The notes: a model not told the origin generated them from the sequence alone. Shown: positions 1 through 7,287, counted from the stretch's first letter. The stretch is 7,287 nucleotides of DNA from a virus (IMGVR_UViG_3300011952_000014:1-7287); one strand, 5' to 3'. Program-made: numbers and translations.

Positions 1-259
1 CGACCCGGTAACAGTCACTGAAACGCGTTATATGCCGGATAACACGATGATCCTTGGCAACACAAAAAACCGCGGGCTCCGCACTTATGGCGCAATTCAG
101 GACGAAGACGCGCTGAAAGAGGGGATTTGCGAAGCGACGCGCTATCCAAAAGTCTGGACCACTACCGGTGATCCGGCAGTGACGCAAACAATGACGCAAT
201 CCGCGCCAGCAATGGTCCTCACGGACGCCGACGCGTTCGTTGTCGTAAAAATTGCGTAA
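1..259 (+). CDS. 3' end of a CDS entering from upstream (partial); possibly a head/capsid-module protein
   Basis: Frame 2 is open from nt 2 to the TAA at 257-259 (...RYMPDNTMILGN...FVVVKIA*). The stop is followed at once by a hairpin plus T-run. Product is positional inference only; I do not recognise the sequence. Confidence 0.5.
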   Translation, partial: DPVTVTETRYMPDNTMILGNTKNRGLRTYGAIQDEDALKEGICEATRYPKVWTTTGDPAVTQTMTQSAPAMVLTDADAFVVVKIA

Positions 260-278
260 GAGCCGAAAGGCTCTTTTT
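258..278 (+). terminator. Rho-independent terminator candidate
   Basis: Read directly: AAGAGCC (258-264), GAAA loop (265-268), GGCTCTT (269-275), a perfect 7-bp stem, then TTT (276-278). It overlaps the stop codon of the upstream CDS and sits 16 nt before the next start. Stem is short and AU-closed, so it is probably leaky. Confidence 0.6.
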
Positions 279-293
279 GGTTAAGGAATCAAC

Positions 294-713
294 ATGAGCA
301 CAAAAACAGAATTGCTGGCGCGCATTGACGATCTGAGCGCTCAGCTCGGTCGCGAATTACCGCGCAGCGGGACTATTGCGGAACTGGAATCAATCGTTGC
401 CGGCGCTGAGTCAGAGCTCGATATTCTGAATGAGCAATCTGGTGACGCGGGAGGCATCGAGATCGCGGTGAATACTGCGCCCGGGACTGATAGCGATCTC
501 GCTCAATCAATCGCGAGCGCTATCGTTTCACAGTCACAAGAACCGGAGCTTGCACCGGCTACGCGCCGCGTTAAGCTGCGTAACACGCTGGACGTTTATC
601 ACTACGTGAACGGGCGTCGCGTTCGCGAGATTGTTGCCGCTGGACGTGAAATTGTTGTTGATTCACCGGAGGTCGCGGACCTCATCGCAGCTGATCACGT
701 TTACGCGCTATGA
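294..713 (+). CDS. Hypothetical phage structural-module protein (139 aa); possibly head-tail connector or head completion
   Basis: ATG at 294 preceded by AAGGA (283-287) at 6-nt spacing. Acidic protein with a helical-looking N-terminus. Its stop overlaps the next start (ATGA at 710-713). Function not recognised. Confidence 0.7.
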   Translation: MSTKTELLARIDDLSAQLGRELPRSGTIAELESIVAGAESELDILNEQSGDAGGIEIAVNTAPGTDSDLAQSIASAIVSQSQEPELAPATRRVKLRNTLDVYHYVNGRRVREIVAAGREIVVDSPEVADLIAADHVYAL

Positions 714-1090
714 GCTACTACGATGACCTCCGGGCTGGCGACGAGGAGATGATCCGTGAGTGGGGACGGCCCGTTAAATTACGCGGTAAAACCGACCCCA
801 TTATCGCTATTTTCAACGAGCCTTACGCGCGCGTTGACGTTCCTCACGCTGGTTTTATTACCGGTACAGTAACGAGCCTGACAGCGCTCTCAGACGACGT
901 CGCTGGCGTTGTTGCGCGTGACGTTGTCCAGGTCCCAAAGCAGCGCAGTATCGCTGCTGACGGCTCAGTTACCTGGTCTTGTTGGACCGATTACGTTGTT
1001 AAAGAACCTCAGCCGGATGGCACAGGGCTCACGAATATTTTTTTAGAGTCTCACACACCCAGCGAAAACAGCGAGTATTCAAAATACTAA
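710..1090 (+). CDS. Hypothetical phage structural-module protein (126 aa); possibly head-tail joining
   Basis: ATG overlaps the upstream stop (ATGA), implying translational coupling. No hydrophobic segments, so not a holin. Function by position only. Confidence 0.65.
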   Translation: MSYYDDLRAGDEEMIREWGRPVKLRGKTDPIIAIFNEPYARVDVPHAGFITGTVTSLTALSDDVAGVVARDVVQVPKQRSIAADGSVTWSCWTDYVVKEPQPDGTGLTNIFLESHTPSENSEYSKY

Positions 1091-1121
1091 GTGGGAACGC
1101 GGTCCCACTTAAGGGGGAAGC

Positions 1122-1802
1122 GTGGCCGATTTACGTAGTAACGCGCAGATGTTCGATATCGATGTTTCTGCGTTGGAGCAACTCAGAGTCGAAATTAGCG
1201 CGACGCAACATCAGATGCTGATGGCATACGACAGGGCGCTGAACCGAACTGCAAAGCATATGCATCGAATTTCAGCAGGAATGATTTTGACTGCACTGGC
1301 AGCTAAAAATCATAAGGCCGTAGATAAACGAATCAAACCGTTCATTAAGCGACGTAATTTTACAAAAGAAGGGGCAGGAGATCTGAGCAGCGTAAAGCTC
1401 TGGTACGGCCTGAACGATTTTCGGGTATCTGAGCTAAAGGGGCGATTACAAAATCCCCGGAAGCAAAAGCAGCCTCGCAATCCAGAGACCGGTCAATTTT
1501 TGAAAACAAAAAAAGGCGCTCGAGGTGCAACTTTTACACCCAAAAGTGCAGGGCTGGCGATGATGAGCTGGCCCGATTCTTTCGTAGCGAAACGCTACGG
1601 TGCGAAAAGTGTCTGGATTCGACTGGCTCGCGGAGGAATCGAAGAGGCTCGCGTACCTGTGCACGACGCGCTGGAGGATGCTATCGATGATTATATTTTC
1701 GAAAATATCGGCCCTGTTTTTATGGGATTTTTTGAGAAAGATTTACGCGGTCGAGTGAAAGGAATCGTTCACGTAGACCCTAAAACAGGTAAACGATTAT
1801 GA
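1122..1802 (+). CDS. Hypothetical phage protein (226 aa), basic middle region; possible virion morphogenesis or tail completion protein
   Basis: GTG start at 1122 preceded by AAGGGGGAAG (1111-1120). Lys/Arg-rich central stretch (RLQNPRKQKQPRNPETGQFLKTKKGARG). Stop overlaps the next start (ATGA at 1799-1802). Functional call is positional. Confidence 0.65.
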   Translation: MADLRSNAQMFDIDVSALEQLRVEISATQHQMLMAYDRALNRTAKHMHRISAGMILTALAAKNHKAVDKRIKPFIKRRNFTKEGAGDLSSVKLWYGLNDFRVSELKGRLQNPRKQKQPRNPETGQFLKTKKGARGATFTPKSAGLAMMSWPDSFVAKRYGAKSVWIRLARGGIEEARVPVHDALEDAIDDYIFENIGPVFMGFFEKDLRGRVKGIVHVDPKTGKRL

Positions 1803-2311
1803 GCGGACTTGATGCATTTGACGAATACCTCGATCGCGTTAAAGGCGCGGTTTTACAAATACCGTTCATCAAAACATTCGGTNNNNNNNNNNCAGCTCTG
1901 TTCCTGGAAATCAGCAACTGGTCACAGAGTGATGAGCCTGTGTCGGGTTCAATTCAGTCAGTCGAGCTGTCGTGTAATTTGTATTTGCTGCGGGAGTTTG
2001 CGGCTGATCAGTACGGACTGAAATCGCAGAATGCAGCGCTCTATATAACAAGCTGGATTAATGGGCGAATGTTCGGTCCCGGAACTAAACCGGCAAAATT
2101 CAGCGACGCTGAACCGTGTGACTGGATTAAAAACGGGCAGTCAGTCGGCTCGCATTCAGTTCAGTGCGTGTCGTTCACGCAGGTCGTCGGCGTCGGTCCC
2201 GATATTTTCGATTATCCATCACAGGGAACCCTGAAAAATATATACGTCGGAATAGCGCCAGATATCGGCGCAGAACACGAGAGCGACTACTATGGCCCAA
2301 TCGGACGATGA
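1799..2311 (+). CDS. Hypothetical phage protein (~170 aa if the gap is exactly 10 nt), interrupted by an N-run; possible tail-completion or baseplate-associated protein
   Basis: ATG coupled to the upstream stop. Frame is open on both sides of the N-run at 1883-1892. The 3' end overlaps the gpV start by 20 nt in another frame. Model depends on the true gap length. Confidence 0.5.
   Translation: MSGLDAFDEYLDRVKGAVLQIPFIKTFGXXXXALFLEISNWSQSDEPVSGSIQSVELSCNLYLLREFAADQYGLKSQNAALYITSWINGRMFGPGTKPAKFSDAEPCDWIKNGQSVGSHSVQCVSFTQVVGVGPDIFDYPSQGTLKNIYVGIAPDIGAEHESDYYGPIGR
1883..1892. other. Run of 10 N (assembly gap or masked bases)
   Basis: Literal nnnnnnnnnn in the sequence, inside ORF 1799-2311. 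Confidence 0.99.
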
Positions 2312-3194
2312 ATATGCCGCAGCGGAGAACGCGCGCCGGCTGCGTGACGCAGTTAAACGCGGCACGATAGCTGCAGTTAAAATGAATCCTCCCCGTTGCC
2401 GAGTCTCATTTGGTGGCGAACACCAGTCGGGCTGGCTGCAGTGGTTTACTCACGCCACCTCAGAACGCGTCGACTGGAGCGCACCATCAGTGGGCGATCC
2501 CGTTACTGTTGTTTCTGAAGGTGGGGACACGCGGAACGGTGTAGTTATGCTCGGGCTGCACATTGACGACAAAGCTCCGCCAAGCAACGACCCCCATGAT
2601 CACGTCACTGCATACTGTGACGGGGCTACGATGACGTATAACACAAAAAATCACACTCTGACATGGCAGGGCCTACCGGACGGCGTAGTAAAAATACTCG
2701 GTGAGTCTGAAATAGAAATATTCGGACGAGCAGACGTTACTATTAATAGCGAAAATGTCGTTAATATTCACGGTGGAAAATTAATTAACGCAGACGCTGA
2801 CGTTATTAACGTGACAGCAACAGACACAATTAACGCACACGCGGATTTAGTGAACGTTATAGCAACGAGTTCTGTTAGTATTACTGCTGCGAACAGAATA
2901 TCGCTGACAGCTCAAACAATCAGTGCGTGGGCTCCGGGGGGGATAACACTAGCTGGTCCAACACATATCACCGAGACGTTAATTGTAGATAAGTTAGCGA
3001 CATTCCGTAACGATATTTCTGTCACTGGAGATAACGGTGGAGCAGGTAATATCACAACTCGCGGTAGTGTGTTAGCAGGGCAAGAGGTACAGGACCGACA
3101 AGGCACAATGAATGAGATGCGTATTACATATAACGGGCATACGCACATATGCCCTGACGGAGAAACAGATAAACCAAATCAACCAATGGCGTAA
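2292..3194 (+). CDS. V: Baseplate central spike protein, P2 gpV family (300 aa)
   Basis: N-terminal motifs PRCRVSFGG...GWLQWFTHA...WSAPSVGDPV match the P2 gpV OB-fold region as I recall it (GRCRVQTGG...DWLQWLTH...WWAPSVGEQV). The middle has 8-residue periodic repeats typical of a triangular beta-helix. C-terminus has YNGHTHICPDG with an HxH motif. Sits immediately upstream of W-J-I. Confidence 0.9.
   Translation: MAQSDDEYAAAENARRLRDAVKRGTIAAVKMNPPRCRVSFGGEHQSGWLQWFTHATSERVDWSAPSVGDPVTVVSEGGDTRNGVVMLGLHIDDKAPPSNDPHDHVTAYCDGATMTYNTKNHTLTWQGLPDGVVKILGESEIEIFGRADVTINSENVVNIHGGKLINADADVINVTATDTINAHADLVNVIATSSVSITAANRISLTAQTISAWAPGGITLAGPTHITETLIVDKLATFRNDISVTGDNGGAGNITTRGSVLAGQEVQDRQGTMNEMRITYNGHTHICPDGETDKPNQPMA
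2730..2951 (+). repeat. Degenerate ~24-bp (octapeptide) periodic repeats encoding the gpV beta-helix
   Basis: Protein units ADVTINSE / NVVNIHGG / KLINADAD / VINVTATD / TINAHADL / VNVIATSS / VSITAANR / ISLTAQTI. At DNA level, recurring gttaat / attaacg motifs in an AT-rich stretch. Confidence 0.6.
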
Positions 3195-3196
3195 AT

Positions 3197-3538
3197 ATGC
3201 TTGGAATGGACCGTTACACTGGTAAACCTTTATCCGGGGTTGACCACATTTGTCAGTCTATCGTTGATATTTTAACGACCCCGCTGGGGACCCGTGTAAT
3301 GTTACCGGAATATGGCAGTAAATTATTTGACCTCGTCGATAATCCCACAGATCCATCGCTTGCTATGCGAATAATTATGGAAAGCGCTGGCGCAATAGCA
3401 CGCTGGGAACCACGCGTCAGAATTGACAGAATAAATGTGTTAGCAGTGGATATCGGGAAAATAACAATATTAATTATCGCAACAGATATCGAAACACAAC
3501 AGCGATTAGAGTTTAATAATATGGAGCTGATATTTTGA
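3197..3538 (+). CDS. W: Baseplate wedge protein, gpW / T4 gp25-like family (113 aa)
   Basis: Motifs ICQSIVDILTTPLGTRVMLPEYGS and ARWEPRV match the gpW pattern as recalled from P2 (ISQSIGDILRTPVGSRVMRRDYGS...LKWEPRV). ATG lies 2 nt after the gpV stop. Confidence 0.9.
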   Translation: MLGMDRYTGKPLSGVDHICQSIVDILTTPLGTRVMLPEYGSKLFDLVDNPTDPSLAMRIIMESAGAIARWEPRVRIDRINVLAVDIGKITILIIATDIETQQRLEFNNMELIF

Positions 3539-4455
3539 TAACATCAACAGTTCAGAACTCGATAGTGAAAACTATTGATATGAGTCTGCTGCCGCCGCCA
3601 GCATTCGTTAAGACCCCGTTATTTTCAGATGTTAAATCTAATCTACTGTCAGAGCTGCAGATATTATATCCACAATTTAACGCACTCCTGGAGTCAGACC
3701 CGGCAGTTAAACTGCTGGAAATAGTCGCATACAGAGAAATCATTATTACAGCCCGGGTAAATCAAGGGGTGTTCGCTGTATTGCTCGCATTCGCAAAAAA
3801 TAGCGATCTCGATCAGATTGGCGCTAATTTTGACTGTCTGCGGCTGTTGATAACGCCAGCTAATCCTGACGCAATCCCCCCGACTGAGGCGGTTTACGAG
3901 AGTGACGACGAGTATCGTCATCGCATACAGCTATCATGGTATGCGCGGAATACTGCTGGCAGTACGAACGCGTATAACTATTTCGCGCTATCGAGTGATC
4001 CAGACGTTTTGTCTGCTCAGGCATACGGCCCCCCCGTGACCCAGCCTGGATACGTCGATATGTATGTCCTGTCGCGAACCGGCGACGGCACTCCGCCTCA
4101 ATCACTACTGAATACAGTTAATGCAGCGCTGTCTCCTGATGACACCCGACCGCTAACCGATTTCGTTACAGTAAAACCTGCGTCGAACCTGAATTACCGG
4201 GTTGAGGCCGATATCGTAGCGGGGCTCGGTCCCGACCAGAACGTGTTGCTCAACGGTGCTCAGAGCGATTTAGCTATATACGTGGCTACACAACATAAAA
4301 TCGGGGCGACGGCAGCTCTGTCGGGAATTTACGATGCGATACACCGTGACGGCACTGAGCGTGTGATTCTGATATCTCCAACAGAGGATGTGATCGCTGG
4401 CGTCGGACAGGCCCCGCACTGCACAGAAATCAAACTCAGCGTGCAAATGGGGTAG
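3535..4455 (+). CDS. J: Baseplate assembly protein, gpJ family (306 aa with the TTG start)
   Basis: Motifs LITPANPDAIPPTEAVYESDDEYRHRIQ and VLSRTGDG match P2 gpJ as recalled. TTG at 3535 overlaps the gpW stop (TTGA) and has GGAG (3523-3526) 8 nt upstream. Alternative starts GTG 3565 or ATG 3580 cannot be excluded. Confidence 0.88.
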   Translation: MITSTVQNSIVKTIDMSLLPPPAFVKTPLFSDVKSNLLSELQILYPQFNALLESDPAVKLLEIVAYREIIITARVNQGVFAVLLAFAKNSDLDQIGANFDCLRLLITPANPDAIPPTEAVYESDDEYRHRIQLSWYARNTAGSTNAYNYFALSSDPDVLSAQAYGPPVTQPGYVDMYVLSRTGDGTPPQSLLNTVNAALSPDDTRPLTDFVTVKPASNLNYRVEADIVAGLGPDQNVLLNGAQSDLAIYVATQHKIGATAALSGIYDAIHRDGTERVILISPTEDVIAGVGQAPHCTEIKLSVQMG

Positions 4456-4457
4456 CC

Positions 4458-5090
4458 ATGACAAGTCAAAGCGTACTGCCTCCGAACGCAATAACCCCCG
4501 AGAGAGCGCTGGAATCTGTTTTATCTCACGTTGGCGATCTGCCTGGCGATATTCGAATTATTAAAAATCCCGATTTGTGTCCTGCAAATCTGTTGCCGTG
4601 GCTGGCGTGGGAATACGCCGTCACCTACTGGAACCCCGACTGGAGCGAGCAGCAAAAACGCGAAATTATTAAAGCAGCTGCGTGGCAGAACAAGCACCGC
4701 GGAACGCGTGGAGCTGTTGAACGAGCGTTATTAACAGTTGGATTTGAGAGCAAAATGAGAGAGTGGTTCGAAGCCGCGCCCAGGGAAGACCCGTATACAT
4801 TCGCAATTAAAATATATCTGCTAAAAAGTATGGGGTTAGATTTAGAGCTATTGAATACATTTATTGCACAAATATTTGATGCAAAAAATTGTCGCTCTTT
4901 ATTAAAGGAAATAAATTTCGAAACAGGTGTGGAAGGGGAATTTTTTATAGCTGGAACTCCTTACACAAAAATAGGCGTAAATATACCGGCAGATGGTGAT
5001 GGTGGCGTGAAATACCTTGTCCTTGTGCTGATCAAACACATCGACANNNNNNNNNNGAGTCTGTTAGTGGAGATTGGACCCAATGGCTAA
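4458..5090 (+). CDS. I: Baseplate/tail protein, gpI family; 3' end unresolved because the ORF runs through an N-run
   Basis: Motif NPDLCPANLLPWLAWEYAV...HRGTRGAVERAL matches P2 gpI as recalled (NPDTCPANLLPWLAWAFSV...HKGTIGAIRRVV). ATG at 4458 lies 2 nt after the gpJ stop, with GGGG 5 nt upstream. The stop at 5088-5090 holds only if the gap is exactly 10 nt. Confidence 0.85.
   Translation: MTSQSVLPPNAITPERALESVLSHVGDLPGDIRIIKNPDLCPANLLPWLAWEYAVTYWNPDWSEQQKREIIKAAAWQNKHRGTRGAVERALLTVGFESKMREWFEAAPREDPYTFAIKIYLLKSMGLDLELLNTFIAQIFDAKNCRSLLKEINFETGVEGEFFIAGTPYTKIGVNIPADGDGGVKYLVLVLIKHIDXXXXSLLVEIGPNG
5047..5056. other. Run of 10 N (assembly gap or masked bases) at the gpI / tail-fibre junction
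   Basis: Literal N-run in the sequence. Confidence 0.99.
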
Positions 5091-6036
5091 ATTAAAATCA
5101 AATCTGAAAGCTAACGCGAGCCAAGTTTATGCGGTGCTGACAGACCGTGGCGCGCAATTAGAAGCTGCGGCGCTGGCGTCAGGCGTGCCGGTAGTGCTAA
5201 ATAAATTCGTTATTGGTGACGCGAACGGAAATGACGACGTAACACCAGACCCGGCCAGAACGGCATTAATTCACGAGACGTATCGCGGAGATATTAAATC
5301 GTCAGAAAATAGCGGTAATCAGGTCATTTTTACACTGTACGTACCGCCGGAAACCGGCGGTTATACCATCCGCGAGGTGGGGATATTAACAGATAAAGGG
5401 GAACTGTACTCAGTTGCACGTTCACCGGATATTTTAAAACCTACGGACAGCAACGGCGCGCTGATTTCAATCACGTATAAATACACTCTCGCGGTGTCCA
5501 GCACGTCTACTGTTAACGTTGTTATTGATAACAGTAGCGGAATGAGCCAGGCAGATGCCGATAAACGATATTTGCAGATAGGTAAAAATTTATCTGAAAT
5601 TAAAGATAAAGGCACGGTGGCGCAAAAAACGGCGCGAGAAAATATCGGCGTAAATCTTGATAATTATTACACCAAAGAAGACGTTGATGATTTAATTGAT
5701 GCTAACGATGACCCTGCACCGGCGGTGCCTGCGTTTGCAGCTGTCGGCTCAGTTGTTTATGCTGGATTTACATTCGATAACTCTACTGTAATGCACTATA
5801 AACCTGGTGATCAGTTACAAGGTTCGATAATTTCCCCTGCATGCATTCAATGGAAATATACCGGAGGTGTCGGCTCTATGAGCGAAGCCACGCTTACGCT
5901 AACTTTTGGAAGAGAGCCATTGCCTGGTATTTGGCAATTGTGCGGACTGATCCCCCAGAGCTATGAGCCATCTTCCGGGGCTGGTGAAGATATCTATACT
6001 GGCAAATTTGCAACTAATTTCACGAGGATAGCGTAA
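5083..6036 (+). CDS. H: Tail fibre protein with P2 gpH-like N-terminal baseplate-attachment domain; short (317 aa)
   Basis: N-terminal motifs VIGDANGN...PDPARTALIHETYRG...YVPPETGGYTIREVGILTDKGELYSVAR match the conserved gpH N-terminus as recalled (AVGDGGG...PDAGQTGLIHEVWR...IPPEVGGFWMRELGLYDDAGTLIAVAN). ATG at 5083 with GGAG (5069-5072) upstream; the track's TTG at 5074 is less likely. Only ~165 aa follow the conserved domain. Confidence 0.85.
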   Translation: MAKLKSNLKANASQVYAVLTDRGAQLEAAALASGVPVVLNKFVIGDANGNDDVTPDPARTALIHETYRGDIKSSENSGNQVIFTLYVPPETGGYTIREVGILTDKGELYSVARSPDILKPTDSNGALISITYKYTLAVSSTSTVNVVIDNSSGMSQADADKRYLQIGKNLSEIKDKGTVAQKTARENIGVNLDNYYTKEDVDDLIDANDDPAPAVPAFAAVGSVVYAGFTFDNSTVMHYKPGDQLQGSIISPACIQWKYTGGVGSMSEATLTLTFGREPLPGIWQLCGLIPQSYEPSSGAGEDIYTGKFATNFTRIA

Positions 6037-6041
6037 AACAA

Positions 6042-6275
6042 ATGATAACAATTGATAACTTTTCAAATATAAAAACACAGCGCTATTCCAGCGCATCGAA
6101 TAACAGTATTGATATTGTCTGTGACATACAAGGGATCGGTAATGCTATTTTATTTACTGCATCTAAAACAGACTCCACATTATATGGCCGAGAGTTATAC
6201 GAGCGCGCCGCTTGCGGTGAATTTGGTGATGTTGCTGAATATGTGGCTCCAATTATAATCGAATCAGGAGAGTAA
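6042..6275 (+). CDS. Small hypothetical protein (77 aa), AT-rich; candidate tail-fibre accessory/chaperone or moron
   Basis: ORF fits exactly between the fibre stop (6036) and the sheath start (6281). Visibly AT-rich compared with flanking genes. No good Shine-Dalgarno (nearest GAGGA is ~13 nt upstream). No homolog recognised. Confidence 0.4.
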   Translation: MITIDNFSNIKTQRYSSASNNSIDIVCDIQGIGNAILFTASKTDSTLYGRELYERAACGEFGDVAEYVAPIIIESGE

Positions 6276-6280
6276 AATAA

Positions 6281-7287
6281 ATGAGCACTAATTTTTTGCA
6301 CGGCCCCCGCACGCTAGAATACGACGACGGCACAAAAGAAATCAGCACGGTAGATATTTCAGTTATCGGGATTGTTGGTACTGCAACGAACGTCGCAGAG
6401 GCTACGAGAGCTTCATTAATGTGGGGTTCATCACTGGCTGATAATCTCGTTGAATTTTCAACGGTATCACCAGGCAGCGACGGTAATAAATGGGTTGTTG
6501 AAATTGTAGATATGACGGTTGATGGCGCAACATGCACTCCGGGATACAGCACGCTGCCCGACGGAACAAAAAAATTAACGATGATTACGGAGCTGGGAAT
6601 GACTCCCAGCAAAATGTATGATCAGAATCAGGGATACAGAGAGGGTAAATCAGACGGAGAATGGATAAATGTAACATTTGGCGGCGATCATTCTGGCACC
6701 GGCACAGTATTCGGCCTCCCGCCGACAAATTTATCTGGCGGAACTGATGATGCATTCCCAATTAATTCACCAGTATTAATTGCAGGCAGTCAGAAAAAAG
6801 CCGCGCTGCTCGGGAAATACGGGACCCTGCCTACCGCAATTTCTGATATTTTAAATCAGACAGATGCGCTAATCGTTGCCGTTCGCGTTGCCGAGAGTAG
6901 CGACGACTCTGATATGAACGAAAATGTTATTGCCGGAATTAACGCGCTGTTGACGTCAGCACAAATTAACGGAGTTACACCACGAATTATTATAGCGCCG
7001 GATTACAGCGCCCGCGATGAGGTCGCAGCGCAAATTGAGGTGGTCGCAAATAAACTTCGCGGCGTTGGATATATTGACTCTCCGCATTTAGCTACACCCG
7101 CAAATGTTGTAAATCGTCGGCAAAATTTCGGAGCGCGCGTAGAATTGTTGCGTCCCCGTGTTTATTCAACTAGCGACGTAGGCGGGCAATCAAGACCATA
7201 TTCAGCCATTGCTGCTGGTTTACGAGCCAGGATAGATAACGAAAAGGGGTTTTGGTGGAGCAAATCGAACCAGAATATCTACGGAGT
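6281..7287 (+). CDS. FI: Contractile tail sheath protein, P2 gpFI family; 5' part only, continues past the window end
   Basis: Hand translation from ATG 6281 is open to the window end: MSTNFLHGPRTLEYDDGTKEISTVDISVIGIVGTATN...DDAFPINSPVLIAG...TPRIIIAPDYSARDEVAAQIEVVANKLRGVGYI...RRQNFGARVELLRP...YSAIAAGLRARIDNEKGFWWSKSNQNIYG. These match P2 FI motifs as recalled (e.g. ALGLRAKIDQEQGWHKTLSN, KPRILGVPGLDTKEVA). AGGAG (6266-6270) lies upstream. Confidence 0.9.
   Translation, partial: MSTNFLHGPRTLEYDDGTKEISTVDISVIGIVGTATNVAEATRASLMWGSSLADNLVEFSTVSPGSDGNKWVVEIVDMTVDGATCTPGYSTLPDGTKKLTMITELGMTPSKMYDQNQGYREGKSDGEWINVTFGGDHSGTGTVFGLPPTNLSGGTDDAFPINSPVLIAGSQKKAALLGKYGTLPTAISDILNQTDALIVAVRVAESSDDSDMNENVIAGINALLTSAQINGVTPRIIIAPDYSARDEVAAQIEVVANKLRGVGYIDSPHLATPANVVNRRQNFGARVELLRPRVYSTSDVGGQSRPYSAIAAGLRARIDNEKGFWWSKSNQNIYG

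Follow-up and report, generated by a model that had tools for sequence, protein, structure and literature searches.

Four coupled genes between a lambda-type capsid gene and a P2-type tail module probably form a phage neck block

Results

Gene content of the window

The window, i.e. the whole 7,287-nucleotide stretch of viral DNA that was analysed (IMGVR_UViG_3300011952_000014:1-7287), carries a single run of plus-strand genes (Table 1). It opens with the 3' end of a major capsid gene, the fragment of which matched the Pfam family PF03864 (Phage_cap_E) with E = 2.8e-12 over profile positions 258-328 of 329, and also matched the PHROGs clusters phrog_6020 and phrog_29, both major head proteins. 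A terminator-like hairpin immediately follows the capsid stop codon and is kept in two relatives, where a single change leaves a G-U pair in place. The four ORFs located downstream, hereafter ORF1 to ORF4, had been described in an earlier note on this DNA, made from the sequence alone, as coupled genes of unrecognised function, suggestive of a head/connector module of non-P2 type joined to a P2-type baseplate, fibre and sheath module. Indeed, all four were found on the plus strand at the positions it gave, with ATGA overlaps at 710-713 and 1799-1802. The ORF2 stop codon lies within a palindrome, the stems of which are identical in two relatives, the differences being confined to loop bases, and the GTG start codon of ORF3 is preceded by a strong ribosome-binding site (AAGGGGGA / AAGGGGGAAGC).

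Table 1 Features of the window, with predicted products
Feature	Position	Strand	Basis or remark
3' end of major capsid gene (lambda gpE type)	1..259	+	ORF fragment 32-259, last 75 codons
Terminator-like hairpin, AAGAGCC-GAAA-GGCTCTT + T-run	258..282	+	Consensus scan; directly after the capsid stop
ORF1, lambda FI-type DNA-packaging chaperone, 139 aa, ATG start	294..713	+	PF14000, phrog_92
ORF2, lambda FII-type head-closure / tail-attachment protein (Hc1), 126 aa, ATG start	710..1090	+	PF05354, phrog_82
10-bp palindrome across the ORF2 stop codon	1087..1112		Immediately 5' of the ORF3 ribosome-binding site
ORF3, gpZ-family tail completion protein (TCP/Ne1), 226 aa, GTG start	1122..1802	+	phrog_27
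ORF4, contractile-tail terminator ('collar') of the PA0615 family, 170 aa as read	1799..2311	+
gpV-type baseplate spike	2292..3194	+	PF04717, E = 3.9e-12; phrog_9992
Baseplate wedge W, J, I	3197-3538, 3535-4455, 4458-5090	+	PF04965, PF04865, PF09684
Tail fibre with P2-type N-terminal collar domain	5074..6036	+	PF12571, E = 1.3e-31

The end of ORF4 overlaps the ATG at 2292 by 20 nt, an overlap that hinges on the start chosen for gene V, which is overlapping in the phage record ON470624 and later in the RefSeq entry of strain JX2. ORF4 itself contains 10 N at positions 1883-1892, which replace approximately 34 nt present in close relatives, so that the real protein should comprise approximately 178 residues. 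Comparison with these relatives shows that the masked part corresponds to a loop that is invariant in the family, IYPEIPAGFETP. From gene V onwards, the Pfam searches identified the genes V, W, J and I, followed by that of a fibre bearing the P2-type collar, in agreement with the P2 order that had been proposed for this part of the window.

The absence of a lysis cassette among the four ORFs, likewise proposed earlier, was borne out. No hydrophobic segment was found in ORF1-4, the highest Kyte-Doolittle mean over 19 residues being 1.30, well under the values of membrane segments, and none of the four matched a holin or endolysin family of Pfam or PHROGs.

ORF1 and ORF2 resemble lambda FI and FII

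ORF1 scored 36.5 bits against PF14000 (Packaging_FI; gathering score 27) over profile positions 1-128 of 131, and E = 5.9e-30 against phrog_92, the PHROG of lambda FI. Its 48 N-terminal residues share 44% identity with lambda FI, and its gene directly follows the capsid E fragment, so that both profile and position place it in the FI family. ORF2 scored 43.8 bits against PF05354 (Phage_attach; gathering score 26) and E = 4.7e-25 against phrog_82, annotated 'head closure Hc1', to which lambda FII also belongs; its location, with the head genes on one side and the gene of the tail completion protein on the other, agrees with FII/Hc1 membership. By their sequences, ORF1 is thus predicted to be the lambda FI-type DNA-packaging chaperone and ORF2 the lambda FII-type head-closure protein. 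Single-sequence searches of ORF1-3 against the sequences of the PDB returned nothing useful, and matches of ORF1 to designed repeat proteins in that database were discarded as low-complexity.

Lambda FI is a packaging chaperone that is absent from the virion. The description of the four ORFs as co-translated structural components is therefore only partly apt: the coupling is seen in the window, but the FI protein would not be a component of the particle.

ORF3, a probable tail completion protein of the gpZ branch

ORF3 matched phrog_27, 'tail completion or Neck1 protein', with E = 5.6e-42, the match covering profile positions 2-199 of 199. This PHROG also takes in lambda gpZ (E = 3.2e-69), while P2 gpS and Mu gpG are assigned to phrog_26. 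No direct match linked ORF3 to the lone lambda gpZ sequence, neither pairwise nor with hhalign, at a significant level, the two proteins being too diverged, and the search of ORF3 against Pfam, including Minor_tail_Z (PF06763), returned no match at E up to 1. The link to gpZ hence runs via the PHROG profile and intermediate sequences. Indeed, the homologue of ORF3 in phage ep3 (30% identity, tblastn 6e-14) scored 25.8 bits against PF06763, above the cut-off of 23.9, and 3 of the 29 ORF3 relatives matched this family, with E as low as 3e-4.

The predicted model of ORF3 (pLDDT 79) matched no solved fold in the PDB, and its profile matched no PDB sequence. The exact ORF3 sequence was absent from the assembly collection. 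The protein is basic, with a pI of 10.2, and its gene occupies the middle position of the order Hc1 - Ne1 - terminator formed by ORF2, ORF3 and ORF4, an order that is kept in the related loci L006, L007, L009 and L010. Taken together, these results make ORF3 a probable member of the gpZ branch, in a divergent, enlarged and basic form.

ORF4 is homologous to the R2-pyocin collar

ORF4 belongs to PHROG 1072, listed as 'unknown function', and the clusters of its distant relatives are all named 'hypothetical protein'. As a single sequence, it matched the R2-pyocin collar protein PA0615 (PDB 6u5f) with E = 0.0079. This match strengthened to E = 5e-8, over almost the full length, with a profile built from close relatives, and to E = 7.4e-31 with a broad ORF4 profile, a homology which argues that ORF4 is a tail terminator. 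Because the copy in the window is masked, the structure was predicted on a homologue 74% identical to the E. coli JX2 counterpart (P0002). The model shows the general, gpU-like terminator fold, which is also that of PA0615 and of the Mu terminator. Sequence and predicted fold thus agree in identifying ORF4 as a probable tail terminator homologous to PA0615. A C-terminal motif (APDIG..H..DY) is conserved between ORF4 and PA0615 and lies in an arm of the model predicted with low confidence; this arm is a candidate for sheath binding, the arm of the pyocin collar being one that inserts into the sheath.

The likeness to PA0615 has its limits, the identity being only approximately 14-25%. The pyocin is headless and its PA0615 ring is a free cap, whereas the ORF4 gene follows FII and a gpZ-like gene, and the ring that it encodes must therefore also dock a head. 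ORF4 differs from lambda gpU as well, which belongs to phrog_37: it is approximately 45 residues longer and carries the conserved C-terminal arm. Moreover, the U gene of lambda is followed by the tube gene V, while ORF4 is followed by contractile-tail genes.

Relatives of the window in E. coli

DNA matching the window was detected in 592 of 5426 complete E. coli genomes. E. coli records spanning 96% of the window are approximately 92% identical to it, and, among deposited E. coli phages, four records match it at 93%. Outside this species, a scan of genome contigs with the alignment of close relatives identified one locus in Escherichia whittamii, with 87-91% identity.

In both strain JX2 and phage vB_EcoM-705R4, the gene order starts with the Q antiterminator, two holins and an endolysin, and proceeds through the small and large terminase subunits (Nu1/A), gpW, portal, S49 protease, decoration protein and capsid E to FI, FII, ORF3 and ORF4. 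V, W, J, I, fibre (H), sheath, tube, E, tape measure (T), U, X and D come last. Head and lysis genes are therefore placed as in lambdoid phages, and the tail genes as in P2. The earlier expectation that the lysis genes would lie elsewhere holds for such relatives: in those with 92-95% nucleotide identity, holin and endolysin genes are found after Q and before the terminase, a region that the window does not reach. The expectation of a head of another type is supported as well, since the fragment at 32-259 encodes a lambda-E-type major capsid protein.

Comparison with P2

P2 carries L, X, the lysis genes Y, K, lysA and lysB, and then R and S between its capsid genes and V. None of ORF1-4 matched the families of gpL (phrog_71, which P2 gpL itself does match), gpR (phrog_65/PF06891) or gpS (phrog_26/PF05069), which confirms that the sequences encoded upstream of V are unlike those of P2. 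The tail genes downstream do resemble P2, J being 40% identical to P2 gpJ and the sheath 36% identical to that of P2.

Could this nevertheless be an ordinary P2 arrangement, in which ORF3 and ORF4 are diverged orthologues of gpS and gpR, and ORF1 and ORF2 replace gpL and X? The functional classes do agree: P2 gpS counts among the TCP/Ne1 proteins (PMC11099176, PMC4362835), and a 2026 cryo-EM preprint reports that P2 gpL is the adaptor and gpR the tail terminator, homologous to PA0615 (bioRxiv 10.64898/2026.09.14.750843). ORF4, for its part, is predicted to have the general terminator fold. By contrast, the sequence families are distinct, gpR belonging to PF06891/phrog_65 and gpS to PF05069/phrog_26, as opposed to phrog_1072 for ORF4 and phrog_27 for ORF3. 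ORF4 gave no Pfam or PHROG match to the gpR family, and neither ORF3 nor ORF4 to the gpS family; the hhalign probabilities of both profiles against gpR and gpS stayed below 1%, in a comparison whose templates (gpR, gpS and lambda gpZ) are single sequences and hence weak, leaving room for remote homology. In addition, a search with P2 gpR gave no match to PA0615, although values of E up to 10 were allowed. The gene order points in the same direction, with the tail completion protein preceding the terminator (Z then U) as in lambda and not R then S as in P2, where both genes follow the lysis cassette and where the adaptor is gpL, not gpW/FII. Finally, ORF1 and ORF2 are of the lambda FI and FII types, and the capsid is of the lambda E type. 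Since no clear homology to P2 L, R or S was detected, which the earlier note had named as the sign of an ordinary P2 arrangement, we regard such an arrangement as very unlikely for this locus. The functions of R and S, the absence of which the earlier note had implied, are nonetheless probably represented: judging from sequence, ORF4 would be the functional counterpart of gpR and ORF3 that of gpS, two proteins that play the same two roles atop the P2 contractile tail while belonging to other families.

Discussion

A probable neck block of lambda order

Our preferred reading, to which we assign a probability of about 85%, is that ORF1-4 constitute the neck block of a temperate myovirus combining a lambda-type head with a contractile tail of the P2/R-pyocin type. 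The assignment of the four ORFs to FI, FII, the gpZ family and the terminator yields the lambda order FI-FII-Z-U, in which the U position is held by a terminator suited to a contractile tail, directly followed by V-W-J-I-H. In long-tailed phages with a Type-1 neck, the adaptor gene comes first, then those of the head closure (Hc1) protein, the Ne1/tail completion protein and the terminator (PMC4362835). The tail completion proteins comprise lambda gpZ, SPP1 gp16.1, P2 gpS and Mu gpG; the terminators, or tail-to-head joining proteins, include lambda gpU and P2 gpR, and the two groups are separate essential components of the tail end (PMC11099176). The neck studied here follows this standard plan.

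The block could operate as follows. The FI protein (ORF1) would help the terminase-DNA complex to dock on the prohead, acting as a chaperone that does not remain in the virion. A ring of FII (ORF2) would then close the filled head below the portal and gpW, the latter being encoded upstream in the relatives, and would offer the face on which the tail docks. ORF3 would sit atop the tail, complete its end and render the head-tail junction competent for DNA exit, while hexamers of ORF4 would cap the tube and the sheath, stop their growth and present a surface for FII binding. We infer the stoichiometries, the contacts between these proteins and the production of virions by the prophage.

Two further readings have to be weighed against a neck block of lambda order. 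The locus might be a defective prophage or a tailocin-like remnant, the neck genes of which have ceased to connect heads with tails. Such a remnant would fit with the short length of the records deposited for 'phage' relatives, 19-27 kb, and with the collar of a headless pyocin being the closest solved relative of ORF4. All ORFs of the window are nonetheless intact and tightly coupled, the relatives retain a complete head set together with FI, FII and Z, which a tailocin does not need, and conservation of the prophage extends to 592 E. coli genomes; we therefore regard a remnant as unlikely. The other reading takes the four ORFs for connector proteins of a type not recognised before, which would form a novel head-tail joining module. 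Database labels lend it some appeal: ORF2-4 are labelled 'hypothetical protein' in RefSeq and GenBank, the NCBIfam search of ORF1-4 matched no model, PHROG 1072 has no assigned function and ORF3 has no solved structural relative. By contrast, all four proteins have statistically strong matches to families or folds that are already described, many published phages carry the block, and the names Hc1 and Ne1 are already in use in RefSeq. A novel module is refuted for ORF1, ORF2 and ORF4 and appears highly improbable for the block. The function of the four ORFs, unrecognised when they were first described, can be assigned in every case from Pfam, PHROGs, PA0615 and the predicted fold, as that of a putative FI, FII, gpZ-family tail completion protein and tail terminator. 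We thus retain a neck block of lambda order.

An old and widespread junction

The core composed of FII, the phrog_27 and phrog_1072 genes and V is also present in Jilinvirus ep3, Vibrio phage Valp1 and two metagenomic contigs. ORF3 and ORF4 share 25-35% identity with their counterparts in distant relatives, and the metagenomic relatives of ORF4 are 25-31% identical. Relatives of ORF3 were detected in 31 phage records and relatives of the ORF4 family in 63-78, the carriers including Iiscvirinae, the Xanthomonas FoX phages, VHML, VP882 and Wolbachia phage WO. The equivalents of ORF2 and ORF3 are named Hc1 and Ne1 in RefSeq phage records, and that of ORF4 is mostly called 'hypothetical', 'minor tail protein' or 'putative tail completion protein'. 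The same FII / phrog_27 / phrog_1072 / V block after a lambda-type head set is shared by the Iiscvirinae (Jilinvirus ep3), the VHML/VP882-type Vibrio phages and WO (PMC9203015; PMC11990801), and this region of WO has already been treated as a 'connector/baseplate' module (PMC9203015).

Conservation across such distantly related phages implies that the junction is old. The mosaic proposed in the earlier note is therefore real insofar as a lambda-type head and neck are joined to a P2-type tail, but it is not a fresh one. Hybrid myoviruses differ in what surrounds the block: the order after V varies, with V followed by the sheath in L009 and L010 and by W-J-I-H in the window, and some carry an endolysin cassette between the capsid gene and FII. 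A literature search found no paper pairing a lambda-like head with a P2-like tail. We conclude that the arrangement is already known and widespread, and represents a common prophage type and not a new system.

The biological stakes are thus small. RefSeq labels three of the four genes hypothetical, and these can now be named; in particular, PHROG 1072, 'hypothetical' in RefSeq, may be named as a tail terminator, given its homology with the pyocin collar, which is the one modest addition. The locus also offers a clean natural case in which a lambda FII ring has to dock on the terminator of a contractile tail, and could serve studies of the compatibility of head and tail modules upon exchange.

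A possible bearing on R-type pyocins

R-type pyocins are usually said to descend from a P2-like phage. Tentatively, and with more doubt than conviction, we raise the idea that they may instead derive from the hybrid lineage by loss of the head, FI, FII and Z. This suggestion comes from the membership of PA0615 in phrog_1072, from the distribution of this PHROG and from the position of gene X. Among the matches listed in the phage collection, none of the phrog_1072 records came from P2-like (Peduoviridae) phages, and most came from myoviruses in which a gpZ-like gene adjoins. Against a hybrid origin, J, which matched R2-pyocin PA0618 with E = 2.5e-59, and the sheath are about as far from P2 as they are from the pyocin. 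As for gene X, it is flanked by U and D in JX2 and follows L in P2; in the pyocin cluster, going by the order of PA0626-PA0628, X has a position like that in JX2, U-X-D. The gene of the pyocin glue protein is located in a different region from that of P2 (bioRxiv 10.64898/2026.09.14.750843).

ORF4 and the R2-pyocin collar

The most conserved motif common to ORF4, the tail terminator gene, and its homologue PA0615, the collar of the R2-pyocin, is G.APDIG..H..DY, which occupies the ORF4 C-terminus (window 2214-2308). This motif lies within a C-terminal arm that is predicted at low confidence and that may bind the sheath. In two Wolbachia phage WO records (AB036666 and AB161975), the ORF4 homologue is annotated as 'similar to hypothetical protein of Pseudomonas aeruginosa' and adjoins a gene annotated as 'similar to GPV of phage P2'. 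A connection with the pyocin locus had therefore been noticed long ago, yet it was never given a name.

Part of ORF4 is masked in the window, which carries two runs of exactly 10 N each, with the reading frame preserved across both. Within ORF4, the run at 1883-1892 takes the place of about 34 nt that encompass the family-invariant loop IYPEIPAGFETP, and that at 5047-5056 is located close to the 3' end of gene I, immediately upstream of the fibre gene start.

Neck genes and intergenic elements

ORF3, which encodes the gpZ-family tail completion protein, has a predicted product with a pI of 10.2, the products of ORF1, ORF2 and ORF4 being acidic (about 4.5). Its lysine/arginine-rich stretch LQNPRKQKQPRNPETGQFLKTKKGARGATF (residues about 109-142, window 1446-1547) stands opposite a gap in the shorter protein of L010, a distant relative from a metagenomic contig, in the hhalign alignment.

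Inverted repeats before and among the neck genes, in window coordinates
Feature	Coordinates	Position
Terminator-like hairpin with T-run	258-282	Directly 3' of the major capsid stop codon, before FI
Perfect 10-bp palindrome	1087-1112	Across the ORF2 stop codon, ending 4 nt upstream of the ORF3 ribosome-binding site

The hairpin is kept in two relatives, where a single change retains a G-U pair, and it could lower neck gene expression relative to that of the capsid gene. The stems of the palindrome are identical in the relatives, with differences restricted to loop bases. Since no T-run is present on its + strand, the palindrome is not a classical terminator.

Gene placement and variable regions in relatives

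In L010 (5352-7037), a GH108 endolysin gene with small ORFs on either side is located between a lambda-type capsid gene and FII. Lysis genes are thus found inside the head-to-tail region, a P2-like placement, and the position of the lysis cassette is therefore variable within the lineage. Tail gene X, which follows L in P2, is found between U and D in the close E. coli relative L001 (30351-32270), where an inserted superinfection-immunity gene, encoded on the opposite strand, separates U from X.

The gpV homologue (window 2292-3194), on whose start codon RefSeq and GenBank relatives disagree, comprises 300 aa versus 211 aa in P2. Its C-terminal part is repetitive and weakly matches DUF2345, which suggests a longer beta-helical spike. 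Further downstream, the match of deposited phage relatives to the window stops at base 5601, and relatives differ from one another in the small ORF at 6042-6275 and in the distal fibre gene sequence (window 5601-6500), as expected for the exchange of host-range cassettes.
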